Assembly (NCBI GenBank): GCA_030390025.1
Contig: CM059432.1
Span: 620,001 to 684,000, forward strand
Length of the DNA: 64,000 nucleotides
Source: Squalus acanthias
Lineage: Eukaryota
Direction: 5' to 3'
How positions within the stretch are numbered: the first letter of the stretch is position 1; each line of letters starts with the position of its first letter. This document shows, piece after piece, positions 2,956 through 57,300 of this stretch. The translations under genes were made by a program, and so were the position numbers. Below the pieces are notes generated by a model that was not told the origin of the DNA, made no database searches, and was given only the letters and a program-made list of their open reading frames with translations.

Positions 2956-3332
2956 TAAACAGGGGTTTTCCCACTTCCAGTAATTTTCTAAATTTTTCTT
3001 TGTTAGTTTCCTTGTTACAACAGCATATCTTTCCTAACCTGTGTAGAGAAGTTTTGAAAAAGACTAGTCTCAAATCTAGTGGTTAAAATGTGGCCAACTT
3101 GTATGAAAGCTGAAGATGGGAGTTATCACAGCAATCACTGGTACTCCAGGTCAAAACTACTTCTGTAACTGGTTAGTATTGTGTTGCAGCAGCAAAACAC
3201 CATTTTCATCCACTAAAGTCCTTTATTTGTTCCACCACTGGTAAGCGATCAGGAACACGAGGCAGCGCTACGCAAACGAGTGCACATACCGATTGATTTA
3301 CACATGTTAAGTAAATTTCTTCAAAGGCTTAC

Positions 3333-3500
3333 CGCTGAAGATGGGAATAATGTTGAAGGGTGTCTGAGCATTACTGGTTGTACACATATACTGAATCCAG
3401 TTGGTTGCATTACAATCTTTTACATCTTTTCCACAAAGCAGCCCCAGAGCCTTGTCATTACTTGAAGGGGACTGAACATCTTTACAGGCATTATACATGG
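3333..3500 (-). CDS. NPC1: NPC1 exon 5
   Basis: [39 protein letters not shown]...[12 protein letters not shown]; 168 nt; CAG/GTAAG. Confidence 0.96.
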
Positions 3501-4350
3501 CTGGAAAAAAAAAACACAATTAATGTGCATTTGCAGTAACCATCAGCAATATCTTGAGGCCATGGTCAGTCAAAATGCAAAGCATTGAAATGTTAAGTGA
3601 TCCCACCTTCACAGTATAACATTACTGATCTTTGCAACAGTTTGACTTGGAACAGATTTTATGAATTTGCACCCAGTATCTTAACCCACTTGGAGGGCAC
3701 ATCAAGAATTGGGATGCATAGGTCATTGGAAAACCCAACCATTAAAATTCACAAATGGAAAATCCTGCAAGGACTGATCTCCAAACATGCAAATCCTTTC
3801 ATCTGAAGAAAACCTCATTTTACAGGGTATGAAGCTTATTACAGCTTGTGTACCAAAAAGCTCCTTACAATCCCTTCCCAGGGATATGGTGTTAAATACT
3901 ATAGATGCTTGCATATAGCACTTCCATTCATCAAATGTTCAATTAGTTTGTCTTTTGAAGCTTCCATTTATTTTTAACAAAAGCAATAGTACTGAAATCT
4001 GATGGTTTTACTGTGGTAGAACAACCAGGGACTCACACTTAATCTAAAGATTGACCAGGTGTTAGTGGTTTGCTTTGGGATGTATTAAGGAAAAGGCATC
4101 ACTCCCCTAGGGGTAAGGTGTGGACCAAGCCATCTAGGAGCAGTAGGGTGGAAGATACCACCTGCTCTCCATCACCAGCTCTTTTGGCTGTAGTTGGTGC
4201 AAGATGCTGGGAAACTGACATAGTTCCTTAAAACAATCAGTCTGCAGTCAGACAAAAACCCTTTGTTCCATAAGTCTCATTAAAATTTTGCATGAAAGAA
4301 TGAGCTCACATTAGAGTACTCAACAAGATTGGATAGATATCCATTCACAT

Positions 4351-4373
4351 GAGAGAGAGAGAGAGAGAGAGAG
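4351..4373. repeat. (GA)n microsatellite
   Basis: Perfect GA run. Confidence 0.9.
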
Positions 4374-4945
4374 CACCACAACAACTGCAGTTCAATGAGG
4401 CCCACCATCACCCCCCCCCACATCCCAAGAATAAAAGAAAGCCATGTGGAGTCCACAACTCAACAGGAAGGCGTGCTGCATAGTACCAAGCCATACAGGG
4501 CAGAAAGAACCCAGCTTGTCCCTGGCCCATACTGAGAGTTAACCATTTTCAGCTGCAGAAGCAATGGAGCACTGAAGTGTAAATTACCACTAGTCCAGGA
4601 AGAGGGGGAAAAGCCAAGATTCCTGCCTCAATGTGGAGGGATTTAGATAGCTGGAACACAGGGTCAGACTTGGAATTAGTTATTGACCATGGGGAATATC
4701 CAAGTCATCAACCAACCACCAGGCTTGTAGATAAGGAACAGTTACTTGAGCTAGGCAGTGAGACACTCATCAGGAGAGAAGCTCACTAGCAGTTGCAGCA
4801 CTGAAGAATTGAAGTTCAGTCTACTAGGATAGTCAATTAAAAACTTGTAAAGTCCTTCTGTTCACCCCAATCATACTCCCCCTATCCCCAATTTTTTTAA
4901 ATTTCCACAGACATGTTCATGTTAATCAAAAACTGAATTTCTCAC

Positions 4946-15049: not shown

Positions 15050-15091
<42 letters not shown>

Positions 15092-16009
15092 GTGGGTTAA
15101 AGTCTCACTCCAGAACTTGAACACAAAAATCTAGGCTGACACTCCAGTACAGTACTGAGGGAGTGCTGCACTTGTAGGCGTCGCTAGCAAGGCCAGCATT
15201 TATTGCCCATCCCTAATTGCCCTTGAGAAGGTGGTGTTGAACTGCCTTCTTGAACCGCTGCAGTCCGTGTGGTCATGTTACTCTCTCACAGTGCTGTTAG
15301 GGAGGGAGTTCCAGGATTTTGACCCAGCAACGATGAAGGAACGGCCGATATATTTCCAAGTTAGGATGGTGTGTAAATTGGAGATGGTGGTGTTCCCATG
15401 TGCCTGCTGCCCTTGTCCTTCTAGGTGGTGGAGGTCGTAAGTTTGGGAGGTGCTGTTGAAGAAGTCTTGGCGAGTTGCTGCAGTGCATCTTGTAGATGGT
15501 ACATACTGCAGCCACAGTGCGCCGGTGGTGGAGGAAGTGAATGTAGTAAAATGTCCCACGGTGCCGAGCCACATAAGGAGATATATGGGCTGATGACCAA
15601 AAGCTTAGCTTAGCGTCTTAAAGGAGGAGAGAGAGACAGAGAGGTTTGGGAGGGAATTCCAGAGCTAAGGGCCCAGGCAGCTGAAGGGATGGCCGCCAAT
15701 GATGGAGCGATTAGATGCTCAAGAGGTTAGAATTGGCGGAGTGCAGAGATCTTGGAGGGTTGTGGGGCTGGAGGAGGTTACAGATATAGGGAGGGGCGAG
15801 GCCATGGAGGGATTTGAAAACAAGATGAGAATTTTGAAATCGAGGCGTTGTTTAACCAGGAGCCAATGTAGGTCAGCGAGCACAGGGGTGATGGGTGAAC
15901 GGGACTTGGTGTGAGTTAGGCACGGGCAGCAGAGTTTTGGATGTCCTCAAGTGTACGTAGGGTAGAACGTGGTAGGCCGGCCAGGAGTGCGTTGGAATAG
16001 TCGAGTCTA

Positions 16010-20328: not shown

Positions 20329-21219
20329 GGGGGAAAAATTCAGTTGGTTGCGCCTCCCGTTAGCGCCTTAAGAGGGCGCTAATGGGGCGTAAAGTGTCTA
20401 GTGCCCGGGCGCGGCGATGTTTGCACCGCTCGCGAAATTAACTAGACATTTTGTGGCGGCGCTAAACACTACCGCCACGATCTCCTGCGCCGGCAGATCG
20501 TGACGTCAGTCAAGTGCGCAACACCCCGGTATCGCCCCGGAGCGGATATTGAGTGGCGCCCCCTGCCTTACCGCCTGCCGCTAGCAACGACAGGTTGAGG
20601 GGAGCGTTTTGCAGTCAGGAAGGGACTGGGGGAGCGCTATTTAAAGGTGACCGCTTCCTGCCTTTTATTGTTGCCGACATTTTTGAACCACGCATTCTGA
20701 GAGAGAGAGAGAGAGACTTCTGGAGAGATTCAACGCTGTGTGAAGGAGTTTTGGGTACTGAGCAGCACTTTGCAGGTTCATTTTGATTTGCCCTTCCTTG
20801 TATCGATTTAGAAGAGACTGTGGGGGCTGCACTCTGAGCTCTTTCCCTGGTATTCTCCATTGTTCTTTCCAGCAGATTTGATGTGCAGGTCTCTCCAGGC
20901 CGAGATTCAAGGCTGCAATGAGCAGGATGTGGATGGAAAGCAAGATCAACCCTCCCCTTTAAGAACTGGATCGCGCCATTGTGTCTGTTCCATTGCTGAC
21001 TGACATCACATGAGCTTCGCCAGCGCTCTGAGGTAGCGCCTCGCTCCTCGGCCTTTGCGCCTTAAGACAGGTGTGAAACGCCTGATTTAGCGCTCCAATC
21101 ACCTCCAGGGGCGATAAAAGTCAAGTTTGCAGTCGGTGGCGATAATTAGCGTCAGGCGCTAATCTTTGCGCCCGGACGATAATTGCGCCCCAACTGGGGC
21201 GATACTGAATTTCTCCCCC
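20329..21219 (+). mobile_element. PIF/Harbinger-type MITE, copy 1
   Basis: 16-bp TIR GGGGGA(A/G)AAATTCAGT; 3-bp target duplication TCT. Confidence 0.85.
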
Positions 21220-21626: not shown

Positions 21627-22525
21627 GGGGGGAAAATTCAGTATCGCCCCGTTTGGGGCGCAATTATCGGCCGGGCGCAAAGATTAGCGCCTGGCGCTAA
21701 TTATCGCCTCCGTCTGCAAACTTGACTTTTATCGCCCCTGGAGGTGATTGGAGCGCTAAATCAGGCGCTACACATCTGTCTTAAGGCGCAAAGGCCAAGG
21801 AGCGAGGTGCTAACTCAGAGCGCTGGCGAAGCTCATGTGATGTCAGTCAGCAATGGAACACAGACACAATGGCCCCGGCCAGTTCTTAAAGGGGAGGGTT
21901 GATCTTGCTTTCCATCCACATCCTGCTCATTGCAGCCTTGAATCTTGGCCTGGAGAGACCTGTACATCAAATCTGCTGGAAAGAACAATGGAGAGGCCCA
22001 GGGAAAGAGCTCAGAGTGCAGCCCCCACAGTCTCTTCTAAATCGATACAAGGAAGGGCAAATCAAAATGAACCTGCAAAGTGCTGCTCAGTACCCAAAAC
22101 TCCTTCACACAGCGTTGAATCTCTCCAGAAGTCTCTCTCTCTCTCTCTCTCTCTCAGAATGCGTGGTTCAAAAATGTCGGCAACAAAAAAAGGCAGGAAG
22201 CTCTCGCCTATAAATAGCGCTCCCCCAGTCCCTTCCTGACTGCAAAATGCTCCCCTCAACCTGTCGTTGCTAGCGGCAGGCGGTAAGGCAGGGGGCTCCA
22301 TTGAATATCCGCTCCGGGGCGCTACCGGGGCGTTGCGCACTCGACTGACGTCACGATCTGCCGGCGCAGGAGATCGTGGCGGTAGTGTTTAGCGCCGCCG
22401 CAAAACGTCTAGTTCATTTCGCGAGCGGCGCAAACATCGCCGCGCCTGGGCACGAGTTGCTTTGCGCCCCATTAGCGCCCTCTTAAGGCGCTAACGGGAG
22501 GCGCAACCAACTGAATTTTTCCCCC
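21627..22525 (-). mobile_element. PIF/Harbinger-type MITE, copy 2 (inverted relative to copy 1)
   Basis: Same TIR and internal sequence in reverse; target duplication ATG. Confidence 0.85.
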
Positions 22526-27180: not shown

Positions 27181-28692
27181 ATACTTGGGACTATGATATT
27201 ATAGCTATTACAGAGATGTGGCTGAAAGAGGGGCAGGTATGGTAGCTCAACATTCCTGGTTACAGGATTTTCAGACGGGATAGAGAGGGAGGTAAAAAGG
27301 GAGGGGGGGTCGCGGTATTGATTAAAGAAACTATTACAGCTGTGAGGCGGGACGATATGTTGGAGGGATCATCAAACGAGGCCATATGGGTCGAATTGAA
27401 AAACAAAAAAGGGGCGATCACACTGCTGGGAGTGTACTACAGACCCCAAACAGTGAGAGGGAGATAGAAGAGCAAATATGTCGACAAATTTCTGAGAAGT
27501 GCAAAAACTATGGGGCAGTAATAGTAGGGCATTTCAACTACCCCAATATTAACTGGGATAAAATTAGTGTGGAGGGTATAGAAGGTGCGGAATTCCTAAA
27601 ATGCATCCAGGAGAACTTTTTTAGCCAGTATGTAGCAAGCCCAACAAGGGAGGGGGCGGTTCTGGACTTAGTTTTAGGGAATGAAGCTGGGCAGGTAGAA
27701 GGCGTATCAGTGGGGGAGCATTTTGGTGCTAGTGACCATAATTCTGTTAGATTTAAGGTAGTTATGGAAAAGGACAAGGATAGACCAGGAATAAAAATTC
27801 TAAATTAGGGAAAAGCAAATTTTGCTAAGCTCAGAGGGGATTTAGCCATAGTGGACTGGAAACAGCTACTTGAAGGTAAATCAGTGTCAGAGCAGTGGGA
27901 GGCAGTCAAGAAGGAGATCCGGAGGGTTCAGACCAAACATGTGCCCTTAAAGAAAAAAGGTGGGACTAACAAATCTAGAGCCCCCTGGATGTCTAGAGAT
28001 ATACAGGGTAGGATAAAAAAAAAAAGGGAGGCATATGACAGATACCGAGGGCTAAATACTCCAGAGTCTTTAGAGGAGTACAGAAAGTGCAGGGGTGCAA
28101 TTAAACATGATATTAGGAAAGCAAAGAGAGAGCATGAAAAATTCTTGGCAAGTAAAATCAAGGAAAACCCAAAGATGTTTTATAAATATATTAAGAGTAA
28201 GAGGATAACTAAAGAAAGGGTAGGGCCTATTAAAGATCATGAGGGTAATCTGTGTGTGGAGGCGGGAGATGTCGGTAGGGTTCTTAATGAATACTTTGCG
28301 TCTGTTTTCACAAAGGAGAGGGGCGAAGCAGACATTGCTATCGGGGGGGAGGAGTGTGAAATATTAGATGAAATAAACATAGTGAGAAAGGAAGTATTAA
28401 GGGGTTTAGCAGCTTTAAAAGTGGATAAATCCCCAGGCCCGGATGAAATGTATCCCAGGCTGTTAAGCGAAGCGAAAGAGGAAATAGCAGAGGCCCTGAC
28501 CATCATTTTTCAATCCTCTCTGGCTTCAAGTGTGGTGCCGGAGGACTGGAGGACTGCTAATGTGGTACCCTTGTTTAAAAAGGGAGAAAAGGATAGACCG
28601 AGTAATTGCAGGCCAGTCAGCCTAACCTCGGTGGTGGGTAAATTATTGGAAAGAATTCTGAAGGACAGGATAAATTTCATTTAGAAAGACAC

Positions 28693-29780
28693 AGAAAGAC
28701 AGAGAGTTGGAATAAACGGCTCATTTTCTGAATGGCAGGCAGTAACAAGTGGGGTACCGCAGGGATCTGTCCTGGGTCCCCAGCTGTTCACAATTTACAT
28801 TAATGACCTGGATCAGGGAGTCGGATGCAGCATTTCCAAATTTGCAGACGACACTAAACTAGGAGGGGGGGTGGGCTCAGAGGAGGAGACCAGGAAGCTC
28901 CAGAGCGATTTGGACAGACTGGGTGATTGGGCGGATAAATGGCAGATGCACTATAATGTGGACAAGTGCGAAGTTATCCACCTTGGGTGCAGGAACGGGA
29001 GGGCAAATTATTATTTAAATGGCAATAAATTGGGAGAGGGGGAAGTACAGAGAGACCTGGGTGTTCTTGTACACCAGTCACTGAAGGCGAGCATGCAGGT
29101 GCAACAGGCGGTCAAGAAGGCAAACGGTATGCTGGCCTTCATAGCAAAAGGGTTGGAATACAGGAACAGGGATACCTTGCTGCAGCTGTACAGGGCACTG
29201 GTGAGACCACACCTCGAGTACTGTGTACAGTTTTGGTCGCCTCATCTGAGGAAAGATGTTCTTGCCATGGAGGGGGTGCAGCGGCGATTCACCAGGCTGA
29301 TACCAGGAATGGCGGGATTGACCTATGAGGAGAGACTATGTAGTTTAGGGATGTACACACTGGAGTTTAGAAGATTGAGAGGGGACCTCATAGAAGTGTA
29401 TAAAATTCTGACAGGTCTAGACAGACTAGATGCAGAAGGAATGTTTCCCTTGGCGGGTGAGAACAGAACTAGAGGACATAATTTAAGGATAAGGGCTAAA
29501 CCATTTAGGACAGAAATGAGGGGGAATTTCTTCACTCAGAGGGTGGTGAACCTGTGGAACTCATTGCCACAGAGGGCAGTGTACGCCAGCTCATTAAATA
29601 TATTTAAGAGGGAATTAGATATATTTCTACAGGCAAAAGGGGTTAAGGGTTACGGAGAGAAGGCGGGGACGGGATACTGAATTGGAGGATCAGCCATGAT
29701 CTCATTAAATGGCGGAGCAGGCTCGAAGGGCCAGATGGCCTACTCCTGCTCCTATCTTCTATGTATCTATGTATCTATGT
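28693..29780 (+). mobile_element. Young 5'-truncated CR1 nested in the host CR1 RT
   Basis: (CTATGTAT)n tail; ACAC duplication; near-identical to 55321-56410. Confidence 0.85.
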
Positions 29781-32700
29781 ACACGGATTAATCAAGGATA
29801 GTCAGCACGGATTTGTTAAGGGAAGGTCGTGTCTGACAAACTTGATTGAATTTTTTGAGGAGGTAACAAGGAGGGTAGATGATGGTAGTGCATATGGACT
29901 TTAGCAAGGCTTTTGATAAGGTTCCACATGGCAGACTGGTCACGAAGTTAAAAGCCCATGGGATCCAGGGCAAAGTGTCAAGTTGGATTCAAAACTGGCT
30001 CGGAGACAGGAAGCAGAGGGTAATGGTTGATGGGTGTTTTTGTGACTGGAAGGCTGTTTCCAGTGGGGTTCCGCAGGGCTCATTACTAGGTCCCTTGCTT
30101 TTTGTGGTATATATCAACGATCTAGACTTGAATATAGTGGGTATGATTAAGAAGTTTGCAGATGATACTAAAATCGGCTGTGTGGTTGATACTGAAGAAG
30201 GAAGCTGTAGACTGCAGGAAGATATCAATAAATTGGTCAGGTGGGCAGAACAGTGGCAAATGGAATTCAATCCGGAGAAGTGTGAGATAATGCATTTGGG
30301 GAGGGCTAACAAGGAAAGGGAATACACATTAAATGGTAGGACACTGAGTAGTGTAGAGGAACAAAGGGACCTTGGAGTGCATGTCCACAGATCCCTGAAG
30401 GTAGCAGGCCAAGTAGATAAGGTGGTTAAGAAGGCATACGGAATGCTTGCCTTTATTAGCCGTGGCATAGAATACAGGAGCAGGGGGGTTATGCTTCAAC
30501 TGTATAAAACACTAGTTAGGCCTCAGCTAGAGTACTGCGTGCAGTTCTGGTCACCACATTACAGGAAAGATGTGATTGTACTAGAGAGGGTACAGAGGAG
30601 ATTTATAAGGATGTTGCCGGGAGTAGAGAATCTTAGCTATGAGGAAAGACTGGATAGGCTGGGTCTGTTTTCCTTGGAACAGAGGAGGCTGAGGGGAGAC
30701 CTTATTGAGGTGTATAAAATTATGAGGGGCATAGATAAAGTGGATAGAAAGGACCTATTTCCCTTAGCAGAGGGGTCAAAAACCAGGGGTCACAGATTTA
30801 AAGTAATTGGGGGAAGGTTTAGAGGGGATTTGAGGGGAAAATTCTTCACCCAGGGGGTTGTGGGGGTCTGGAACTCACTGCCTGAAAGGGTTGTAGAGGC
30901 AGGAACCCTAACCACATTTAAAAAGTACTTGGATGTGCACTTGGGATGCTCTAACCTGCAGGGCTACAGACCAAGAGCTGGGAAGTGGGATTAGGCTGGA
31001 TAGCTCTTTGTTGGCCGGCGCGGACACGATGGGCCGAAATGGCCTCCTTCCGTGCTGTAACTTTCTATGATTCTATGCTGCCTGCATTACATTGAACGGG
31101 CACGGGGTAATCGCGTATCGTGATCCCCATGTCCGTTTTTGGGGGCTGTCCAATTTAGTCCCTTAGAACTGGAAAATTAGACATCTTAAATTATTCATTA
31201 TGTCTCAATTAGGTGCTTAATTGTCTGAAACCTATGTTTATGGGCTAGATAATTAATCCATGATTTAGTACATTGGTTGCAGTTTGCAACCTCTGGGCTC
31301 AACATTGACTTTAATTACTTCAGATCTTAACCTCAGCCTCATTTTCTTTACAGTAGGCGATGTGGGATGGCTGGTGTCCGGTGGTGGGGGCGGGGGGCAG
31401 CAGCAGGCGGGGGCAGCGACAGGTGGTGTGGGGGATAGTAAGGGAGGTAGGTTAAAGCTTGGACTGGAAACCCGCTATCAAAACGCAGTGTTGGTGGAAG
31501 AGTCTGCGCTGTAGGTGTTGGTCTGCTTTTTTTTCAGCACTGGTAGAGCATATTTTGCCAGATTCTCCTGTGTTAATTTTAGACCTACCCCCATCTTTTG
31601 TCTTGTCCTTGAGTAAAACCCACTACAATTACCATTATTTCTCTAATGGCTTATTTTTTTAATATGTCTTTCCATTGTCTGATTTAAAGATCATCTCGGC
31701 TGTCTATCCATCTCCTGTTTTTCTTTTAAGCAGGTTACAGGTAATTGAATAGATTGGGCCTATACTCTCTGGAGTTTAGAAGAATGAAAGGTGATCTCAT
31801 TGAAACATATAAGATTCTGAGGGGGATTGACAGGGTAGATACTGAGAGGTTGTTTCCCCTTTGGGTGCTCAATCGTTGAGTATATTCAAGACAGAGATTG
31901 ATAGATTTTTGGACTGTAGGGGAATCAAGGAATATGGGGATCGGGCGGGAAAGTGGAGTTGAGGTTGAAGATCAGCCATGATCTTATTGAATAGTTGAGC
32001 AGGCTTGAGGGGCCGTATGGCTGATTCCTGCTCCTATTTCTTATGTTCTTATATTCTTATCAATACTTCCTCTCCATTAAAATACTTGTTCATTTTTCAA
32101 TTTTTTAGTTTTGCTTGCCTGAAATGTTAATTTATCTGTTCTCTCCACAGATGCCGACTGACCTGCTGTGTGTTTCCAGCAATTGCAGTTGTTTGCTTTT
32201 TATTATTAATCTGTTGCAGAAGTTCAAAGACCATGTTGTATAATTTGAAGACAAATCAGGTAGGTAACCCTTACATTCAAGTGTAGTTCTAATATTTAGG
32301 AAATAGTACAGGATTAATATAATGATTTAAAAAAATTAAAAACCAGCAGCCTATTAAGACAATACATGCAAACAGTTTAATTTACCAATCAATTGGAGAA
32401 GACAAAATCATTTCAAAACAAATTGACAACTATGTGTAAATATCCCTACTGTAAGCAAGTTGTAAGTTAAAGATCACAGTCCCCAAATTCCAAGACATTT
32501 TCAGGGCCTAAAATGGAGGTAACTCACTTGACTGCGGCCACTTACGCTGACCTTCTGCCCCAGCAACAGCACCCAAATTTTCAAAACCAATTTGGCCCTT
32601 CCTGCGATCTGACCACTCATATAAAAATAATTGCCAGTGGTGCTGCAGCCCCGAATTTCCTGTGTTTACGCTCGCAATGTGCTAGGGGTAAGTGAGAATG

Positions 32701-33298
32701 AGAATGATAAAGAACAGATGTTGCCAGGATCAGCTGAGACTGGCAGAAGTGAGGGATTTTGAACTTGAAAACTGCTGAAAGTTTGGAGTAGCAATTACTG
32801 CAGCTGGGAATATTTGCAGCAATTTTTTTTGGCATTCAGCCTAGACAACCTTGCACTTGCTTTTGACTGCCTGTGAGAGTGTGAGCCCAACTGAGTGTTG
32901 TTCAGGAGCAGTTATAGAAAGAACCTGCATTTCTATAGCACCTTTCACAACCATAGGATGTCCCAAAGCACTTCACAACCAATCAATTACTTTTGAAGTG
33001 TAGTCACTGTTATAGCGAATCATGATTTGCACACAGCAGGATCCCAAAAATCGTCTGTAAGATAAATGACCAGATCATCTATTTTAGTGATGTGGGTTGA
33101 GGGATAAATGTTGGCCAGGACACCAGGAGAACTCCCTTGCTGTTCTTTGAATAGTACCATGGAATCTTTTGCATCCACTTGAGAGGGAAGATGGAAGCTT
33201 AGTTTAACATCTCATCTGAAAAACAGCAGCTCTGACAGAGGGTAGCCCTCTCGCCTCTGAGTCAGAATGTTGTTGGTTCAAGTCCCACTCCAGAGACT

Positions 33299-33836
33299 TG
33301 TCGAAGTTTCGACTTCCGAGTAAGACTCTCTAAACATAAAGTATCGTCAAAGACAGGCTTTATTATTTACTTGCAGCAAGGAGAATGCATGCAGTCAACG
33401 GCTACTTGACATTCTGAAGAATCACAGAAAATGGAACATCTTTATACACTGAAAATACAAGCTTTCTATATCACATGACATGTTGTTTAAAGTAAGCTAA
33501 GTTAAAAGTTAAAAAAATAGAAATGCCTTACGATGAGACTAGCTAATCTCTACAGTCATGGAGTCTGTCTGTCTGTTCTTCTTCTCCCACCAAGGCCAAG
33601 GTATCTGGATGTTTACTTCACTAGTCCTTGGTTATCTCAAGTTGATTAGAAGAAGCCTTTTTGTTCTGTACCAGCAGACTATGAAAACAACATAGTCTGC
33701 AAAGTTTAAATTCATCTCCATGAGAAGTCATAAACAACTTTATCTTTTCCCAAACAAGTCAGAGTCGGCCATTTTGTATCACTCTTTCTGTGTCTAGGAA
33801 GCCATTTTGTGTCCGAGACAAAAATACACTTCCACA
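33299..33836 (-). repeat. 3' LTR (538 bp), preceded by PPT AAAAAGGGGGGAA
   Basis: About 4 visible differences from the 5' LTR; TATAAA at 33441-33446; AATAAA at 33359-33364. Confidence 0.95.
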
Positions 33837-34069
33837 TTCCCCCCTTTTTGTCCTTCTAGGACAAAATAGCTCAATTTAACTCTTTCGGTCTCTCCTGTCG
33901 GTTCCTGTACCAAATTTGAATTTTGGCCAGGGATGCCAACTTCTTTTCTGTTTTAACCATCCTCAGGATTATACCTGTATTGATGGCTGACCTTATTTAA
34001 GATCGTCTCTCCTTTCTGTCTATCCTTAGGGTTGGGCATGTAATTCTTTGAATTCTAATTTGTCCAGTT

Positions 34070-35414
34070 TTAATTTTGGCCACTGTAACTGGCATCATCT
34101 TGGTCATCTAATCCGTAAAAATTTATCTTACTCAATCGCCTTAGCTCTTCCCCTAGGGGACTGTTCTTCTCTTCTTCTTCATTTACTTCCCTCTGTACCA
34201 TCATACTTCCTCCAGGTATAACTGCCTTACCTAGCCTATTACAACAGCATTTAATCATTGTGACAAACAGAATTACTGCTACCATTACTACTAGTCCATG
34301 CAATAATATTTGTCCCATTGATCCCAGCCATCCTCCCAGTATCCAGTCAAACCATCCTTGGCTCTTTGGATTCTTATACTGACTCACTGCATCTCTTATG
34401 TGTTTAACTATGTTAGTTATATTTTCTGAACTGTCTGGGATATAGGTACAACATTCACTCCCTATCAAAGCACAAGTTCCTCCTTTATTCGCCAACAGAT
34501 AATCTAATGCCATTCGATTCTGCAATGTCATTACTCTTATAGCTACCATTTCAGCACTCATTTCGGACAATCCTTCCTCAGTTTCATTTGCCACTTTTTC
34601 TATCAGATCTGCTAGCTCGTTTACTTCTTCCATTAACTTCCCTATTCCGTATGGGGCTATTAATACGCCAAAGACTCTTTCATAAGTTGCTATCTCTCTT
34701 TTACTCCTTTGGAATTCATGATGTTCTCCTATCTTGTCTAAAATGTGGATATAAGGTACTACATAACCCAAATAGCAGGACCCTGTCCAGTTATGTGGCA
34801 ACCATGGATAAGCCTTGTTCCCGCATATAAAATAGGTGCAATTATAGGCCGTCAAGTTACCCTCTCCTCCCATCCATATTCGGATAGGGTCGCCTGTCCA
34901 GGGGGACCTACTGGTTTTATTATTTACTTTAGTCCAGTCAAACTGAAAAAATCCCTGCTCAAGCAGGCCAGGAACTCTCTCCGACTTTCTTTTCATCCTG
35001 CATCCTGCTTACTGCAGCCTGCTTTTTAAAACATAATGCCCCTTGTGGTCTACCAACTCCTGAGGTATTAGTTAATACAAGAAACGGGGGTGTTCGAGTA
35101 TGATTATAATTGGGCTGATACCATCCCTGAAAGCTGGTTAGGTTATACCCTGCTGATCTGCACTGTTCTACATCTGAGGTCTTATCCGGATCCCTTGAAC
35201 TGTTTCTTCTTATTACCCATTCTGCTGTTTCGGAAGTATTAAAGGGAATTGATCTGAGGAGGATCCCTCCCGTGGTGTGAATAGGTATATGGGCACAGAC
35301 CCAACAACTAGATCTACCACTAGTTTTAGCATGCTCGTAAGACATGTACAAGAAAGTGTTAACATGTAATTCTCGTTTCTTTCGGGATCCTTCCCCACCT
35401 CTTTGGCACGTCAT
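34070..35414 (-). pseudogene. env: Gamma-type envelope (SU-TM), frameshifted near 34965
   Basis: CWVC motif, WTGSCYLG, furin site RSKR, fusion peptide, immunosuppressive domain LQNRMALDYLLANKGGTC, CX6CC (CALIGSECC), TM helix and cytoplasmic tail. Confidence 0.92.
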
Positions 35415-35474
35415 GCGTATCAGTCCGATTAATATTTAAAATATATGTAACAGCTTCATTGTTTAAGTCCTTGT

Positions 35475-35535
35475 TTGGTGCTTTCTTGCAATGGGATGCG
35501 TGGATCCAGGTAGATCTTTCCTTGACTTTTCGACT
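35475..35535 (-). pseudogene. Integrase C-terminal remnant
   Basis: KVKERSTWIHASHCKKAP, the gamma/epsilon-type integrase-end WIHASH motif. Confidence 0.75.
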
Positions 35536-36019
35536 CCATTTTTGTCTATTATCCCCCACCCTGTGTTGTTTTGCATTTTACGATTCCCTTATCACTTCTA
35601 TTTGTCTTTTGATGCTTGATATTTGACCTTGCTGGCATTTCTGCTATCTGTTCCTGGCTGCATGTTGTCAGTTTCTGTTCTAAGAATTAAAACCCATCTT
35701 TGAATCGAACAGCTATTTCTTACAATTCCCTTCTTTGAGAAGGAAATAATTCTTATTGACTTCTCACAATCGGCTCTTGACTAATCTGGCTAGTTCTTAT
35801 TGCTCTCTCAATTTGGGCGTTAGTTATCAGTCCATTCCTTTGAGGAGAAGGAGCAACCTCTGACCCTTACTCAAATTCAATTCATTGTTCCAGTATTCCA
35901 ATTCTGCCCCGCCTGGGGTATCCTCTGTTTCTTCTATCTTCCTGATGTTACCCCGCCTGGGGTCTCCTCTACATTGCTTCGGATCTTCTCTTTCGGTGTG
36001 CTCAATTTGTTAGTGCTGG

Positions 36020-37291
36020 TTAGTCATGGGCATGACTACCCAATTGGCTTGTGTATCTTACTACATAGGTTACATATATCAAATACACAGGCCCAGAAAT
36101 TCGCGTGTCCGGCTTGCCGCGGGGGTAAGGATCGCGCGCGCTCTTACCCACCGCGCCTGCCGTTGTGTTTTGGGCCCACAGGAACTTCGGGTCCTGGGCC
36201 TCTCCCAAGAGCTGGCGCGCAGTGCTTGCGTGTTCCAGGGGCGCAGTTAGTGCGATGCGACCCCTGGGATCACGTGGGCCATGGAGAGCCAATGGCAGCA
36301 GACCATCTTTCATTCATAGATTTGACAGGAGACCTGTCAAATCTGTGAATTGAAATCGGCCCCAAAAGAACAGCTAAACTTAAAATAATTTTTTTTAAAA
36401 AACCATCACATTTATAAAATAACTATAGGTAAATAAATTAACCACTTTAAACAAAAATTTAAATTTTTGAAAAAATTAAAATACTTTTTAAAAGTTATAA
36501 AAATAAACTTACCTTTCTTTAAAGTATCTAAAAAAGATAAACCTGTTGAAAAATTTTTAAAATTATACTTAATTAACCACTTACCTAGTTCAAAAGGGTT
36601 CTTACGCCTCCTTTTTATTAGCGTAGAATCTTCAATACTTACCCTTGCGTGGAAACCTGAAAAAAAATCTAAGTGTGCTGCGTGCGCGCAGCCTCTAGCG
36701 CGCACGCGGTTCACCTAGGAACCGCCCCCTTCACCATACCGGAAGTTCCGGTTTCCCGCGCATGCGCAGTGCATGCAGGAAACCGGCACTTCGGGAATCA
36801 ATACGGGTGAGTACACACTGTGTACTCACGCGGGAAGGGCTGAATTTTTGGGCCACTATCATTACAAGTTGGAGAACTACCAGAACGTGTGAAATAATAC
36901 AAATCTAAGGGTGTGCTGATATATTAAACCCAATATCCCACCAGTGTGAGTTGTCCCCTATGCTGTCAATTTCAATATCTATTCTCGAGTTGTCTTCCTT
37001 CAAAACATAAAAATGCTTTAGGGAGGAGTTCAGTCGCATCATGAGCTCACTGATAACCTTAGACAACAGGGGAATGTCGTATCCGAATTGTGCCACATAA
37101 TTGTGCAGCTCATACTTAAGTACCTCATTTACTGTCAGTTTCACTTGAGCACAGGTTTCAATATTATGTAAAATGTGTTGATTGATGGGACAGGTCCAGT
37201 TAGACCCGTAAAGCATGGTAGTTGCGGTAGTAGTGACACAGGAGGTACCACCAAAACCACCACATACTGGATTCGCACTGGTTTTTCCCAC
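36020..37291 (-). pseudogene. C-terminus of an env-like type I membrane protein (non-gamma), split by a MITE
   Basis: Cys-rich segment, helical IPLLSKVISELMMRLNSSLKHF, HWWDI, one in-frame stop, then a hydrophobic TM ICIISHVLVVLQLVMIVYLIYVTYVV that is continuous only after removing 36090-36854 plus 3 bp. Confidence 0.6.
36090..36854. mobile_element. Harbinger-type MITE inside the provirus
   Basis: TIR GGCCCAGAAATTC / GAATTTTTGGGCC; imperfect 3-bp duplication ACA/ACT; GC-rich arms around an AT-rich core. Confidence 0.75.
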
Positions 37292-39049
37292 GCTCTGTTA
37301 CCTACAAAACACAATTATTACAGTCACTGTTAAATTCAGTCTTACAATCATTTCAAGCAACATTACAATTTAACATCTAATCAACAAATCATGGACTTAA
37401 AAGATTCTCCAGATCGCTCTTTTTTTTTACTCGTATCCATATTGTGGATAATTCTTACTAAACATGATTTCTCCTTAGCCCTCAATTGTCCCAATCCAGA
37501 TTCCAGGTAACTCTCCACTTCAACTTCAATTTCCAATCCCTCTAACAGGTACCAGTGTGTTTAACTCTATTCTGTTTCATTAATTAGATAGTTTCTCGAT
37601 GGAGTATGTGTCAATGCTTTAAAAGTTGTCTCGCTCTCCTGAACCATATTACCCATTTCATGTCTTGCTGTTGTCAAGTAACTGAGCTTGTTTGAGACCC
37701 GTTCTTCAGTGCAGATTCACCATACATTTCCAGATGGTAATTGCTTCATACGTAACAAATCACATTTGCACACATCTCAATATCATGCCACATGTGCCTT
37801 TCTCGGGCTTTCAGGTATCTTATCAAAAGATTGTCTTTGTTCATCTTCCTCTGCATGGTTCCGATGCCTTGGATAGTGGCCAGGCTATCAAATTCAGTTT
37901 TCTTAAAAGTTCATTATAGGCAGGGACACAAATGTCTCCAAGAGAAAGCTATCAATTTATTATTCTTAGCTACACTTTCCTGACTTTCACCAGAAAGTTT
38001 TTAAAAATTCCCATTCAGCAGTGTAATTCTCCTGTTTCAATCTTACACCTTCAATCACTCCCCTTTAATTACTATTCATATCTCATTCATGAGCCCTGGA
38101 GAAACTTTACTGTCCAGTACAATATTTAAGATTGAAAACATAGATCAAACATTCTCACTAGGTCCAAGTTATTAACACTTTTTTTATTTATCATTATTTT
38201 AGAGGATCTTTTATTTTTCCAAAAGTAACCCAATATATAGTGCCTGAGTCCATTTTGTCATTTCAACATTATCCCAAAATCCAAACAGCAGTATTATTGA
38301 ACTGACAGGTTTTGTCAATGTTCAATTTCATTTCTATCAATTTATCTTATCAATTCCAATTTCAGAAACAAATGATTTCCAGGCTAGGTGGCTTACACAG
38401 TGTTTTAACATTAGAGACAGAAGTGCTGCAATTAGTTTACAAGGTAACTTCCATATAACAAAAGAAAGAAGAGAATCCATTGTGACTCTGCTTAGAGCCC
38501 AAGGGGTTAATTTATCAAATCATAATTTTCCTTCTGGGAAATGTTAAATTAAAATTAAGAAACTTAAATTTAAGAATGTCCAATATCTTTAAATGTCATA
38601 CTAAAGTTGTTGCTCGGTGAACTTAAACAGCTGTCAGTGGAAAGGGTTAACTCCTTTGCAGGTCTTTAAGAAGGTGGAGCGAAACATTGTCAGGCGCACG
38701 TAATTGCGTCACTTTACGTAAATTAAAAACATTTTTCCCGATCGAAAAAGACAGTTGTGTTTTCATACTTTAACTGAACATGAACAGAACAGATAAAACA
38801 AAACAAACTAGTACATGCTTGTAGAAAACCATAAATCACATCATATTTCTTATAACTGGAGAAAAATTAGTTTTTCACACTTAAGCAAATCAAATCAAAC
38901 TGCTTTGGAAGATTTCACCATAGCAACTGCGACTCCAAGGTTAAATCTTAGACCGAAACTTAATCTTTTGTTAAACAAACTTTTTGTTTTTCTTCTCAGT
39001 TTTTACACACCAGCTTAACTTAAATTGTAGTTCAAAGTTTTTTTTTCAA

Positions 39050-39520
39050 TTCTTGGGGCACAATCTATTGCAGCCACACATCGTGGCATTGCCTTCGCTA
39101 CTGGATCCCTCTTTAACTAACCGTTGAATCGGCTCTGCTTTCCCTGCAAAGTCTGATATAAAATTCCTGCAGTAGTTAAATTGTAGTCCCAACACTTTCC
39201 TCACTCCCCGGATGGTCACTGGCCTTGGCATGTCTTTTATGGCTGCCTTTGTTTCTGCAGGAGTGCCTTATACCCCTGGTTAATTTCATGTCCTAGATAC
39301 TTTACTTTGGACAGTCCAACCTGTACCTTTTTTTGGGGTTCAATTTAAAGCCAGCTTTCCTTTGGCATCCTCTGATGCAATCATTATGTCATCGACATAT
39401 TGGAGTAGGGCACTCTGATACTTTGATAGGTCTAACTCGTCTAAGGCTTGACTCAGTACATGGTGGAATATATTTGAATTATTGTGGAACCCCTGCGGGA
39501 CCCTGATCCATGTATCCTGT
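39050..39520 (-). pseudogene. pol: Retroviral reverse transcriptase remnant
   Basis: TWIRVPQGFHN, LLQYVDDIMIAS, KKVQVGLSKVKYLGHEI, PRPVTIRGVRKVLGL(Q)FNYCRNFISDFAGKAEPI; deletions and frameshifts. Confidence 0.85.
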
Positions 39521-39544
39521 CTATCCCTGACATTGGAGTAGGGC

Positions 39545-39562
39545 ATCTCGGTGGAACCTCCA
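39545..39562 (-). promoter_or_regulatory. Primer-binding site, tRNA-Gln
   Basis: TGGAGGTTCCACCGAGAT, complementary to the 3' 18 nt of vertebrate tRNA-Gln(CTG). Confidence 0.9.
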
Positions 39563-39570
39563 AGAAATAC

Positions 39571-40107
39571 TGTCGAAGTTTCGACTTCCGAGTAAGACTC
39601 TCTAAACATAAAGTATCGTCAAAGACAGGCTTTATTATTTACTTGCAGCAAGGAGAATGCATGCAGTCAACGGCTACTTGACATTCTGAAGAATCACAGA
39701 AAATGGAACATCTTTATACACTGAAAATACAAGCTTTCTATATCATATGACATGTTTTAAAAGTAAGCTAAGTTAAAAGTTAAAAAAATAGAAATGCCTT
39801 ACGATGAGACTAGCTAATCTCTACAGTCATGGAGTCTGTCTGTCTGTTCTTCTTCTCCCACCAAGGCCAAGGTATCTGGATGTTTACTTCACTAGTCCTT
39901 GGTTATCTCAAGTTGATTAGAAGAAACCTTTTTGTTCTGTACCAGCAGACTATGAAAACAACATAGTCTGCAAAGTTTAAATTCATCTCCATGAGAAGTC
40001 ATAAACAACTTTATCTTTTCCCAAACAAGTCAGAGTCGGCCATTTTGTATCACTCTTTCTGTGTCTAGGAAGCCATTTTGTGTCCGAGACAAAAATACAC
40101 TTCCACA
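39571..40107 (-). repeat. 5' LTR (537 bp)
   Basis: TGTGGAAGT...ACTTCGACA termini; TATAAA and AATAAA present. Confidence 0.95.
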
Positions 40108-40249
40108 GACTTCAGCACAAAAATCTGGCCTGACACTCCCAGTGGCAGTACTGAGGGAGCGCTGCACTGTCGGAGGTGCCGTCTTTCAGATGAGATGTTA
40201 AACCGAGGCCCCGTCTGCTCTCTCTGGTAGATGTAAAAGAAATGAAAGA

Positions 40250-42959: not shown

Positions 42960-43852
42960 GGGGGAAAAATTCAGTTGATTGCGCCTCCCGTTAGCGCCTT
43001 AAGAGGGCGCTAATGGGGCGCAAAGCATCTAGCGCCCAGGCGCGGCGAAGTTTGCGCCGCTCGCGAAATTAACTAGACATTTTGCGTCGGCGCTAAACAC
43101 TACCGCCACGATCTCCTGCGCCAGCAGATCGTGACGTCAGTCGAGTGCGCAACGCCCCGGTATCGCCCCGGAGCGGATATTGAGTGGCGCCCCCTGCCTT
43201 ACCGCCTGACGCTAGCAACGACAGGTTGAGGGGAGTGTTCTGCAGTCATGAAGGGAAAGGGGGAGCACTATTTAAAGGTGACCGCTTCCTGCCTTTTATT
43301 GTTGGTGCCATTTTTGAACTACGCATTCTGAGAGAGAGAGGGAGAGACTTCTGGAGAGATTCAACGTTGTGTGAAGGAGTTTTGGGTTCTGAGCAGCACT
43401 TTGCAGGTTCATTTTGATTTGCCATTCCTTGTATCGATTTAGAAGAGTCTGTGGGGGCTGCACTCTGAGCTCTTTGCCTGGTACTCTCCATTGTTCTTTC
43501 CAGCAGATTTGATGTACAGGTCACTCCAGGCCGAGATTCAAGGCTGCAATGAGCAGGATGTGGATGGAAAGCAAGATTAACCATCCCATTTAAGAACTGG
43601 CCCGTGTCATTGTGTGTGTGTTCCATTGCTGACTGACATTACATGAGCTTCGCCAGCGCTCTGGGGTAGCGCCTCGCTCCTCGGCCTTTGTGCCTTAAGA
43701 CAGGTGTGAAGCGCCTGATTTAGCGCTCCAATCATCTCCAGTGGCGATAAAAGTCAAGTTTGCAGTCGGTGGCGATAATTAGCGACATGCGCTAATCTTT
43801 GCGCCCGGCCGATAATTGCGCCCCAAATGGGGCGATACTGAATTTCTCCCCC
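42960..43852 (+). mobile_element. PIF/Harbinger-type MITE, copy 3, inserted in a CR1 tail
   Basis: Same TIR and internal sequence; target duplication ATA. Confidence 0.85.
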
Positions 43853-43855
43853 ATA

Positions 43856-46830
43856 GAGTTATACAGCACAGAAAGAGGCCCTTCGGCCCATCGTGTCTGC
43901 GCCGGCCATCAAGCCCTGTCTATTCTAATCCCATTTTCCAGCACTTGGTCCGTAGCCTTGTATGCTATGGCGTTTCAAGTGCTCATCTAAATGCTTCTTG
44001 AATGTTGTGAGGGTTCCTGCCTCTACCACCCTTTCAGGCAGTGAGTTCCAGATTCCAACCACCCTCTGGGTGAAAAAGTTTTTCCTCAAATCCCCTCTAA
44101 ACCTCCTGCCCCTTACCTTGAAACTATGCCCCCTGGTTATTGACTCCTCTACTAAGGGGAAAAGTTCCTTTCTATCTACCCTATCTATGCCCCTCATAAT
44201 TTTGTACACCTCAATCAGGTCCCCCCTCAGCCTTCTCTGCTCTAAGGAAAACAACCCCAGCCTGTCCAGTCTCTCTTCATAGCTGAAGCGCTGCAGCCCA
44301 GGTAACATCCTGGTGAATCTCCTCTGCACCCTCTCCGATGCAATCACATCCTTTCTATAGTGTGGTGACCAGAACTGCACACAGTATTCCAGCTGTGGCC
44401 TAACTAGCGTTTTGTACAGCTCCATCATAACCTCCCTGCTCTTATATTCTATGCCTCGGCTAATGAAGGCAAGTATCCCATATGCCTTTTTAACCACCTT
44501 ATCTACCTGTCCTGCTGCCTTCAGGGATCTATGTACATGCACACCAAGGTCCCTCTGATCCTCCGCCCTTCCTAGGGTCCTACCATTCATTGTGTATTCC
44601 CTTGCCTTGTTAGTCCTCCCAAAATGCATCACCTCACACTTTTCAGGGTTAAATTCCATTTGCCACTGTTCTGCCCATCTGACCAACCTGTCTATATCGT
44701 CCTGTAGCCTGAGGCTTCCCTCCTCGCTATTTACCACCCCACCAATTTTCGTGTCATCTGCAAACTTACTGATCATACCTCCTACATTCATATCTGTATC
44801 ATTAATGTACACTACAAACAGCAAAGGACCCAGCACCGATCCCTGCGGTACACCACTGGACATAGGCTTCCAGTCACAAAAACAACCTTCGACCATCACC
44901 CTCTGCCTCCTGCCAGTAAGCCAATTTTGGATCCAATGTGTCAAGTTGCCCTGGATCCCATGGGCTCTTACCTTCTTGACCAGTCTCCCATGTGGGACTT
45001 TGTCAAAAGCCTTACTGAAGTCCATGTAGACCACATCAACTGCACTACCCTCATCCACACACCTAGTCACCCCCTCGAAAAATTCAATCAAATTGGTCAG
45101 ACATGATCTCCCCCTGACAAAGCCATGCTGACTATCCTTGATTAATCCTTGCCTCTCCAAGTGGAGACTAATTCTGTCCCTCAGAATTTTTTCCAATAAT
45201 TTCCCTACCACTGATGTTAGGCTCACTGGCCTATAATTTCCTGGTTTATCCCTACTACCCTTCTTGAATAATGGTACTACATTAGCTGTTCTCCAGTCCT
45301 CTGGCACCTCCCCTGTGGCCAGAGATGTTCTGAAAATTTGTGTCAGAGCCCCTGCAATCTCCTCCCTTGCCTCACACAGCAGCCTGGGATACATCTCGTC
45401 TGGGCCTGGGGATTTATCCGCTTTTAAGCCCGCTAAAACCGCTAGTACCTCCTTCCTCTCAATACTAATTTGTTCAAGTATATCACAATCCCCCTGTCTG
45501 ATTTCTATGCCTACATCGTTCTTCTCCATAGTGAACACAGATGCAAAATATTCATTTAAAACCCCACCTACATCTTCTGGCTCTACACACAGATTGCCAC
45601 ATTGGTCCCTAATGGGCCCTACTCTTTCCCTGGTTATCCTCTAGCCCTTAATATACTTATAAAACACCTTGGGATTTTCCTTTATTTTGCCCGCCAGTGT
45701 TACTTCATGCCCCCTCTTCGCTCTCCTAATTTCTTTTTTAAGTACCCCCCTGCACTTTCTATACTCCTCTAGGGCTTGCACTGTTTTTAGTCCTTTGTAT
45801 CTGCCAAAAGCCTCCCTTTTTTTCCTAATCCATTCTCGTATATCCCTTGACATCCAGGGTTCCCTGGGCTTGTTGGTCCCACCCTTGACCTTTACGGGAA
45901 CATGTTGCCGTTGTACTCTCTCTATTTCCTTTCTGAAAGACTCCCACTACCGTGATGTGGATTTTCCTACAAGTAGCTGATCCCAGTCCACTTTGGCCAG
46001 ATCCTGCCTTATCACATTAAAATTGGCCTTCCCCCAATTTAGAAACTTTATTTCCGGTCCATCTTTGTCCTTTTCCATGACTAGGAATGACATATGAGGA
46101 GAGATTGGGTCGATTGGGCTTATACTCGCTGGAGTATAGAAGAATGAGAGGGGATCTCATCGAAACATATAAAATTCTGACAAGTCCTGGACAAACTAGA
46201 TGCAGGAAGAATGTTCCTGATGGTCGGAGAGTCCAGAACCAGGGGTCATAATCTAAGGATAACGGGTAAGCCATTTAGGACAGAAATGAGGAAGAATTTC
46301 TTCACCCAGAGAGTGGTGAACCTGTGGAATTCTCTACCACAGAAGGTAGTTGAGGCCAAGTCATTAAATATATTCAAGAATGAGTTAGATATATTTCTTA
46401 AAGCTAAAGGTATCAAGGGATATGGGGAGAAGGCAGGTACAGGGTACTGAGTTTGGATGATCAGCCATGATCTCATCGAATGGCGGAGCAGGCTCGAGGG
46501 GCCGAATGGCCTACTCCTGCTCCTATCTTCTATGTTTCTATGACTACCTTAAATCTCACCGAATTATGGTCAATGTCACCAAAATGCTCTCCGACTGACA
46601 CTTCTACCACTTGCCCTGCTACATTCCCTAGAATTAGGTCCAGTACCGCCCCCTCTCTTGTAGGACTTTCTACATGCTGGCTCAAAAAGCTCTCCTGGAT
46701 GCACTTTAAGAATTCTGCACCCTCTAAGCCTTTCACACTCTGACTATCCCAGTTAATATTGGGGAAGTTGAAATCCCCTACTATTATTACCCTATTTTTT
46801 CTACACTTCTCTGAGATTTGCCTACATATC
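43856..46830 (-). mobile_element. CR1 LINE ORF2 (open 537-aa RT at 43925-45538), interrupted by a plus-strand CR1 3' fragment at 46084-46539
   Basis: RT motifs NYRPVSL, DFSKAFD, PQGS, FADD; ATGACTA duplication around the nested copy. Confidence 0.9.
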
Positions 46831-54389: not shown

Positions 54390-57300
54390 AAAATTCTTTC
54401 AGGGCTTGACAGGGTAGATGCAGGGAGGATGTTTCCCCTGGTTGGGAGTCTAGAACCAGGGGTCACAGTCTCAGAATAAGGGGTCGGCCATTTAGGACTG
54501 AGATGAGGAGAAATTTCTTCACTCAGAGGGTGCTGAATCTTTGGAATTCTCTACCCCAGAGGGCTGTGAAGGCTCAGTCGTTAAGTATATTCAAGACAGA
54601 GATCGATAGATTTTTGAATATTAAGGCAATCAAGGGATATGGGGATAGTGCAGGAAAGTGGAGTTGAGGTAGGAGATCAGCCATGATCTTATTGACAGGG
54701 TAGATGCAAGGAGGATGTTTCCCCTGTAAGAATTTTGTATGTTTCACTGAGAGCGCCTCTCATTCTTCTAAACTCTAGAGAATATAGCCCTAGTCTACTC
54801 AATCTCTCCTCATAGGACAATCCCCCCATCCCAGGAACCAGTCTGGTGAACCTTCGTTGCACTCCCTCTAGAGATAGCGGATGCACTAAGTATGATTTTT
54901 CAGAATTCATTAGACTCGGGAACAGTGCCCATGGATTGGAGGGTAGCTAACGTTACCCCACTATTCAAAAAGGGGGGTAGGGAAAAAGCAGGTAATTACA
55001 GACCTGTAAGCCTTACATCAGTTGTGGGCAAAATGCTGGAGTCCATCATTAAGGATGAAATAGCGGAGCACTTAGCAAATGGGGACAGGATAGGACAGAG
55101 TCAACATGGATTTACAAAGGGTAAATCGTGCTTGACTAATCTATTGGAATTTTTTGAGGGAGTAACTGGTAAAATAGATGGGGGAGAGCCAGTAGATGTG
55201 GTGTACCTGGACTTCCAAAAGGCCTTCGATAAGGTCCCACATAAAAGATTAGCAGGGAAAATTGAAGCTCATGGGATAAAGGGGAAAGTATTGACGTGGA
55301 TAGAGAACTGGCTGTCAGATAGAAAACAGAGAGTTGGAATAAACGGCTCATTTTCTGAATGGCAGGCAGTAACAAGTGGGGTACCACAGGGATCTGTCCT
55401 GGGTCCCCAGCTGTTCACAATTTACATTAATGACCTGGATCAGGGAGTCGGATGCAGCATTTCCAAATTTGCAGACGACACTAAACTAGGAGGGGGGGGT
55501 GGGCTCAGAGGAGGAGACCAGGAAGCTCCAGAGCGATTTGGACAGACTGGGTGATTGGGCGGATAAATGGCAGATGCACTATAATGTGGACAAGTGCGAA
55601 GTTATCCACCTTGGGTGCAGGAACGGGAGGGCAAATTATTATTTAAATGGCAATAAATTGGGAGAGGGGGAAGTACAGAGAGACCTGGGTGTTCTTGTAC
55701 ACCAGTCACTGAAGGCGAGCATGCAGGTGCAACAGGCGATCAAGAAGGCAAACGGTATGCTGGCCTTCATAGCAAAAGGGTTGGAATACAGGAACAGGGA
55801 TACCTTGCTGCAGCTGTACAGGGCACTGGTGAGACCACACCTCGAGTACTGTGTACAGTTTTGGTCGCCTCATCTGAGGAAAGATGTTCTTGCCATGGAG
55901 GGGGTGCAGCGGTGATTCACCAGGCTGATACCAGGAATGGCGGGATTGACCTATGAGGAGAGACTATGTAGTTTAGGGATGTACACACTGGAGTTTAGAA
56001 GATTGAGAGGGGACCTCATAGAAGTGTATAAAATTCTGACAGGTCTAGACAGACTAGATGCAGAAGGAATGTTTCCCTTGGCGGGTGAGAACAGAACTAG
56101 AGGACATAATTTAAGGATAAGGGCTAAACCATTTAGGACAGAAATGAGGGGGAATTTCTTCACTCAGAGGGTGGTGAACCTGTGGAACTCATTGCCACAG
56201 AGGGCAGTGTACGCCAGCTCATTAAATATATTTAAGAGGGAATTAGATATATTTCTACAGGCAAAAGGGGTTAAGGGTTACGGAGAGAAGGCGGGGACGG
56301 GATACTGAATTGGAGGATCAGCCATGATCTCATTAAATGGCGGAGCAGGCTCGAAGGGCCGGATGGCCTACTCCTGCTCCTATCTTCTATGTATCTATGT
56401 ATCTATGTATCCTTCCTTAGGTAAGGAGACCAAAACTATACACAATACTCCAGGTGTGATCTCACCAGGGCCCTATATAATTGCAGTAAGATGTCTTTAC
56501 TCTTATACTCAAATCCTCTTGTAATAAAGGCCAACATACCATTTGCTTTCCTAATTGCTTGCTGTACCTGCATGTTAACTTTCAGTGATTTGTGTACAAG
56601 GATACCCAAGTCCCTCTGAACACCAACATTTCCCAATCTCTCACCATTTAAAAAATACTCTGCTTTTCTATTTTTCCTACCAAAGTGGATAACTTCATAT
56701 TTCTCCACATTTTATATTCCATTTGCCATATTCCTGCCCACTCACTTAGCCTGTCTATATCCCCTTGAAGCCTCCTTGCATCCTCCTTACAATTTACATT
56801 CCCACCCAGCTTTGAATCATCAGCAAACGCGGATATATTACATTTGGTCCCCTCATCCAAATCATTGATGTAGATTGTGAATAGCTGAGGCCCAAGCACT
56901 GATCCTCGTGGTACCCCACTAGTTACAACCTGCCAACCCGAAAATGACCCGTTTATTGCTACTCTCTGTTTTCTGTCCGTTCACCAATCCTCAATCCATG
57001 CTAGTATATTACCCCCAATCCCATGAGCCCTAATTTTGTTTAATAACCTTTTATGCGGCACCTTATCGAATGCCTTCTGAAAATCCAAATACACCACATC
57101 CACTGGTTCCCCCTTATCGATTCTGCTAGTTACAACCTCAAAAAACTCTTAACAGATTTGTCAAACACGATTTCCCTTTAATAAATCCGTGTTGACTCCG
57201 CCCAATCCTATTATTATTTTCTAATTGCCCTGTTACCACGTCCTTAATAATAGATTCTAGCATTTTCCCTACTACTGATGTCAGGCTAACTGGTCTGTAG

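Follow-up and report, generated by a model that had tools for sequence, protein, structure and literature searches.

The window analysed here is a stretch of 64,000 nucleotides from Squalus acanthias, and on its minus strand lies a provirus of 6.8 kb (33299-40107) with paired LTRs, a PBS-like site, a polypurine tract and a 4-bp target-site duplication (33295-33298 and 40108-40111). Read in the proviral direction, its interior consists of a reverse transcriptase (RT) remnant, AT-rich DNA, the last fifth of an env gene that belongs to a family of shark sequences, an integrase-tail-like motif and a second env, of gamma type (Table 1). The insertion sits inside a SINE-like repeat: the proviral flanks match adjoining halves (15060-15114 and 15115-15172) of one repeat copy. 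gag, pro and most of pol are absent: what is left is a piece of RT that follows immediately on the PBS, plus a weak motif like an integrase tail, and we therefore regard the provirus as a non-autonomous derivative. We take the PBS-like 18-mer to correspond to tRNA-Gln.

Table 1. Features of the provirus, listed in the proviral direction (coordinates are those of the window)
Feature	Position	Strand	Remarks
5' LTR	39571..40107	-	537 nt, TG...CA ends; 99.3% identity to 33299-33836
PBS-like 18-mer	39545..39562	-	begins TGG, 8 nt inside the 5' LTR
RT remnant	39100..39549	-	directly after the PBS, in several frames; RVT_1 E 4.4e-7
AT-rich stretch	37300..39100		GC 0.345 for 37600-39100
C-terminal remnant of env, probably F-like	36855..37252	-	beta-rich part, heptad helix, WW motif, start of membrane anchor
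MITE, non-autonomous DNA transposon	36090..36854		765 bp with terminal inverted repeats of 12 bp; interrupts the part that codes for the membrane anchor
Rest of membrane anchor and short tail	36020..36089	-	score gain against relatives
Stretch between F-like env end and integrase-tail-like motif	35530..36019	-	about 500 nt; holds a 20-nt direct repeat
Integrase C-terminal-end-like motif, class I (gamma/epsilon-type)	35479..35529	-	MLVIN_C E 0.083, below cut-off
Gamma-type env	34070..35459	-	TLV_coat E 4.9e-16; CWVC, RSKR furin site, ISD-like stretch, CX6CC, membrane anchor
Polypurine tract	33837..33849	-	sequence reading
3' LTR	33299..33836	-	538 nt, TG...CA ends

The provirus is young but defective. 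Its two LTRs differ by three substitutions and one indel (4 of 538 positions), a divergence of 0.56% that gene conversion may have lowered and that corresponds to an age of 1.3 to 13 million years at, respectively, the mammalian rate and the assumed shark rate in the available part of PMC4422223. Decay of the RT exceeds what this divergence allows, so that the damage likely predates the last integration. Two stretches of the interior carry no recognizable gene: the 1.8 kb of AT-rich DNA yielded no Pfam family in any of six frames and no Rfam match, and the stretch between the first env and the integrase-tail-like motif, where one frame was scanned, yielded no Pfam family and is possibly a decayed 3' accessory region. 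The MITE hairpin aside, self-comparison brought up neither an internal LTR nor any other repeat. At least 20 of the 22 sequencing runs listed for 35400-38600 contain part of this region and five contain half or more, about a quarter of the query being MITE; no RNA dataset is among them, and a list of runs is not evidence on copy number or expression.

The first-pass annotation, made from the letters alone, had read the stretch 36020-37291 as the hidden C-terminus of an env-like class I fusion protein, split by a MITE. Homology in fact begins near 37252, some way inside the upstream limit proposed. From there to the insert (37252-36854), a profile of five natural relatives matches residues 555-699 of an intact shark ORF of 739 aa, about 20% of the gene, at E 2.6e-25; the same profile found nothing else better than E 0.27 for the remaining 80% or so in the six frames of the window. 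The first-pass annotation had recognized neither how small a share of the gene is left nor that the piece belongs to a full LTR element with a gamma-type env further along. Over the 399 nt upstream of the insert, the minus-strand frame of the gene is interrupted by a single stop, at 36905-36907, while the two alternative frames have 11 and 13. With X placed at stops, a search of 1.84 billion representatives retrieves six relatives of the remnant that pass E<=0.001; their E values run from 7.8e-11 to 3.1e-5 and their identities from 30 to 37%, the best of them having E 7.8e-11 and 35% identity. Pfam and PDB sequence searches with the window piece gave nothing meaningful and the Atlas no usable match; a search with P0004 against longer proteins returned none of 58 candidates.

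How well does the remnant keep the layout proposed for it, that is, a cysteine-rich region followed by an amphipathic helix, an HWWDI motif and a transmembrane helix? The WW pair is invariant across all seven aligned sequences and the hydrophobic helix of the anchor comes next, but only two of the four remnant cysteines align with cysteines of the intact shark relative. Aligned to its relatives, the remnant also lacks about 15 internal residues. Since it comprises only a fifth of the gene and has this gap as well as the stop, no functional protein is possible from the piece: it is real but dead. Just upstream, on the minus strand at 37271-37351, lies a hydrophobic stretch with a weak likeness to the same membrane anchor (profile E 0.27), which we would tentatively ascribe to chance or to a decayed tandem piece.

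The insert in the anchor-coding stretch is a MITE. Its terminal inverted repeats match at 11 of 12 nucleotides, its arms have a GC content of 0.58-0.60 with little CpG loss (CpG o/e 0.86-1.08), and between them lie a core with a GC content of 0.21 and internal hairpins. The excision proposed in the first-pass annotation, of 36090-36854 plus one 3-bp duplication, is backed by the inverted repeats but not cleanly by the flanks, which in the register that the repeats set match at only two of three positions. By contrast, the three other elements with similar ends in the window all have exact 3-nt flanking duplications; these are copies of another MITE family, 92-94% alike, at 20329-21219, 21627-22525 and 42960-43852. 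From its 3-nt duplication we take the insert to be PIF/Harbinger-like. No second copy of it was found within the window, and there is nothing unusual in such an element having landed in a defunct gene of a provirus. Elsewhere the window holds two identical copies of a 300-nt repeat (28865-29164 and 55493-55792) and long ORFs at 27326-30994 and 43925-45640, which we presume to be young CR1-type LINEs.

Does the env gene continue on the far side of the insert? When the proposed tail is joined to the remnant and every break is written as X, the alignment score summed over the six relatives rises by 53. Of 3000 random tails, 3 reach this gain, and of 600 hydrophobic ones, 9; reading on into the insert adds 0-7. 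The rise in score indicates that the gene does continue past the insert. The particular tail put forward is less secure, for another frame on the far side yields a gain of 50, which leaves two candidate frames for the cytoplasmic tail.

The intact relatives are two: P0009 from Chiloscyllium punctatum (739 aa) and P0011 from Scyliorhinus torazame (754 aa), both unnamed ORFs. They are 86% identical over 734 residues across two shark genera, and each comes from a cluster of one or two sequences on one contig, which makes them candidate domesticated env genes. Both have a furin-type site, eight N-glycosylation sites and cysteine clusters, along with long helices, a long N-terminal heptad, a cysteine-rich beta region, a C-terminal heptad and a C-terminal membrane anchor; CX6CC and CxxC are absent from both of these full-length relatives. 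Possession of the furin-type site, helices, beta region and anchor supports the original proposal that the window piece is the C-terminus of a class I fusion protein. Residues 68-145 of P0009 show weak matches to antibody domains (E 0.05-0.85). Two further relatives are gene models that fuse an env remnant of the family with a protein bearing a cadherin domain (P0007) or with an F-box protein (P0008); these fusions may be mis-annotations or cases of exonisation.

To which class of fusogen does this family belong? The likeness to paramyxo- and pneumovirus F proteins suspected in the first-pass annotation is probable, on evidence from folds and profiles that stays below threshold throughout. When the portion downstream of the furin site is compared by language model, its named neighbours in the Atlas are F0 (12 of 30 matches) and Baculo_F/gypsy Env (15 of 30) at 0.93-0.94, where the rank-1 cluster is unnamed and 4-10 per 100 shuffled proteins reach at least 0.9; broken down, 12, 13, 2 and 1 of 30 matches fall in sets that carry F0/Baculo_F families. 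The best 10 of 361 Foldseek matches in the PDB all belong either to F (of RSV, hMPV or measles virus) or to foamy Env, with a sequence identity of 11-14% and E values of 0.017-0.25, none of them significant and obtained with a model of pLDDT 35. A second structure model, of pLDDT 49, had no specific fold match, and a viral structure library ranked unrelated proteins first. At the level of sequence, Baculo_F appeared at E 0.0011, below the cut-off, in one of the six relatives (P0008), on the stretch homologous to the window piece. PF00523, which the Atlas neighbours carry, was matched by none of nine proteins in hmmscan.

Profile A3 gave coiled-coil noise only against the PDB, and profile A2 recovered from a 5.8-billion set, among 8000 candidates, only the same two shark proteins again. 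None of 11 and none of 9 candidate stretches matched on viral contigs, and none of 62 on metagenome contigs searched with P0009. Taking fold, profile and layout together, we consider it probable that the family encodes a class I fusogen cleaved by furin and of the same type as paramyxo/pneumovirus F; the window would hold its membrane-proximal part (heptad repeat, WW stretch and anchor). An F-like env family of cartilaginous fish for which Pfam has no model would thereby gain a divergent member, which touches on the question whether retroviruses had F-type fusogens ancestrally.

The second env is of a different kind. Of the features that the available parts of 10.1101/2021.11.23.469661 and PMC8278194 give for gamma-type Env, it has the CxxC motif in SU, the furin site, the ISD-like stretch, CX6CC and the anchor. 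It too is disrupted: a stop occurs early on and the frame shifts. Some of the frameshifts in the provirus may be assembly errors. Tandem duplication of a single env can be set aside, since the two are unrelated (best BLASTP E 0.24 between the gamma-type env and the F-like family). Among metagenome contigs, 3 of 321 stretches match the gamma-type env, at 39-42% identity (L001-L003), and these three have no match to the F-like env, the RT or the integrase tail better than E 0.18. One of them, L001, holds an ORF at 3009-4673 that looks gag-like by eye. The integrase-tail-like motif, for which the PDB offered no sequence match, and the gamma-type env next to it lead us to infer that the 3' part of the provirus derives from a class I-like retrovirus with a gamma-type env.

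The 5' part points to another source. The RT remnant, which has no gag, pro or RT start before it, finds MLV RT as its best PDB match (E 1.1e-6, 50 residues on both sides), with foamy RT at E 0.06 and no SnRV RT among the PDB matches. Its motifs PQGFH and QYVDDI each occur at least three times in the available part of the PMC7947760 supplement, in every case in SnRV rows. Note that this placement consists of two motifs read by eye in a short remnant rather than of a tree. RT and F-like env follow one another, with 1.8 kb of AT-rich DNA between them, and from this order we infer that they came from the same parent, which would make the 5' part the legacy of an SnRV-clade retrovirus with an F-type env.

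How, then, did two unrelated env genes come to lie within one pair of LTRs? The reading we favour, and to which we assign a probability of roughly two in three, is that of a non-autonomous mosaic provirus: a recombinant of an SnRV-like retrovirus with an F-type env and a gamma-env retrovirus, carrying the remnant of a dead env. Imagine that RNAs of an SnRV-clade virus with an F-type env and of a gamma-env virus were co-packaged and that a template switch occurred during reverse transcription. The end of the old env would have been kept ahead of the new one because the switch fell downstream of the first env. Large deletions would have taken gag and pro, the greater part of pol and the 5' portion of the F-type env while leaving the cis signals intact, and a helper virus would have copied the element in trans into the SINE. 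We invoke copying in trans because the RT is more decayed than the age of the LTRs allows. The MITE would have jumped into the anchor-coding stretch either before or after that last integration.

A bolder version of this scenario sees in the provirus a frozen intermediate of a switch of envelope class in a mobile family, in which a shark virus of the SnRV clade gained a gamma-type env while keeping its F-type one, perhaps by way of a stage with two working fusogens that differed in fold. We regard this as possible but doubtful. If true, it would mean that, besides loki and foamy viruses, an orthoretroviral lineage had F-type Env as its native one, and that gamma-type Env displaced it there. 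Exchanges of env are usually inferred from a mismatch between pol and env trees, the old env being lost; the end of a displaced env beside the new one would show both the direction and the place of the swap.

Among the alternatives to a recombinant provirus, the one that fares best supposes that a class I-like ERV with a gamma-type env served as backbone for separate captures, namely a scrap of SnRV-like RT, a scrap of F-like env and host DNA, so that RT and F-like env would have no parent in common. Several features of the locus would sit comfortably with such a history: the AT-rich DNA between RT and env piece is unassignable, the RT remnant starts abruptly after the PBS, and neither LTR nor PBS is tied to either parent. 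Yet RT is followed by env, both on the minus strand, as in the order of one retroviral genome, and we consider independent captures unlikely.

Two further explanations are much less probable still. The env piece might be that of a lokiretrovirus, as the first-pass annotation had suggested, and so extend loki viruses to cartilaginous fish. In the available part of PMC7947760, loki Env is indeed F-like, with furin site, heptad and anchor, and in one published loki Env end the cysteines and beta elements follow, by eye, a similar order. Against this attribution stands the RT of the same provirus: where the remnant has the two motifs of the SnRV rows, loki RTs in those data have a PFG motif with a shorter spacing to YVDD. 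The regions in which a lokiretrovirus would carry its CGIN1-like integrase, its tether with RNase H and the optional smc gene are deleted from the provirus. The WW motif is moreover absent from the loki Env end compared, the nine proteins lack PF00523 matches, and loki viruses are recorded for none of six chondrichthyan genomes (PMC7947760, available part, with the meaning of the column taken from the legend of Fig. 1). Just as improbable, to our minds, is that the layout arose at the level of DNA, through nesting or gene conversion, or is a chimera of the assembly, rather than having been replicated as an RNA genome. That the layout is represented by one copy in a repeat-rich genome might suggest as much, but LTRs, target-site duplication and split SINE are clean, and the self-comparison revealed no internal LTR and, the MITE hairpin excepted, no further repeat.

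Least credible of all is capture of a fragment of a host membrane-protein gene: two of the six relatives are joined to host domains and the intact ORFs are as alike across two genera as host genes would be, but the homologous stretch does not include the cadherin and F-box domains, and the intact ORFs possess a furin site, have neighbours of F type and share no more than 27% identity with the window piece; should these ORFs be host genes, domestication of an env gene would be their simplest origin.

The mosaic provirus that we favour resembles a number of known systems in part. We did not find both env types within one provirus in print, and the layout rests on one copy: a narrow search of the literature, which left some supplements outside it, returned no description of an F-type and a gamma-type env in one LTR pair, and the available parts of PMC10536682, PMC9967133 and 10.1101/2024.03.17.585361 contain nothing on a two-env layout. 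The components taken singly are familiar. SnRV-like ERVs are known from the elephant shark (CmiERV lineage I; PMC4422223, available part), and F-like Env has been published for loki, foamy and errantiviruses (PMC7947760, PMC13524379 and PMC11468914, as far as their available parts go).

With respect to the first env, lokiretroviruses (Wang and Han 2020, PMC7947760) offer the same layout of an F-like class I fusogen in a vertebrate retroelement; going by the available part of that report, the present element differs from them in its RT motifs, in the lack of a PF00523 match and in having a WW stretch, which the loki Env end compared does not. Paramyxo- and pneumovirus F, foamy Env, baculovirus F and errantivirus Env (PMC11468914 and PMC13524379, available parts) are alike in the probable fold of the intact shark relatives. 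The likeness is distant (11-14% identity in the top 10 fold matches, none significant), and the window holds the membrane-proximal fifth only. Snakehead retrovirus itself (PMC12193657, available part) shares the RT motifs and has ORFs 3' of env, where the present provirus has the stretch at 35530-36019.

With respect to the combination of parts, the parallels are class III elements with a class I or gamma-type env. XtERV-S, as described in the available part of PMC8278194, likewise joins a class III pol to a class I env and likewise includes copies with deletions in which LTRs, PBS and PPT persist; it differs in being ERV-L-like, with a 5-bp target-site duplication, a tRNA-Ser PBS and one env only. 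Chen et al. (10.1101/2021.11.23.469661, available part) report SnRV-related pol joined to gamma-type env in ERVs of fish and amphibians. Such SnRV-related (class III) ERVs with a gamma-type Env, ERV-SA.a-Ppe among them, resemble the present provirus in combining an SnRV-type RT with a gamma-type env in an anamniote, and the combination is explained there by recombination. Compared with elements of that type as the available text presents them, the present provirus has lost gag and most of pol, and it keeps, ahead of its gamma-type env, the remnant of a second env that is not of gamma type.
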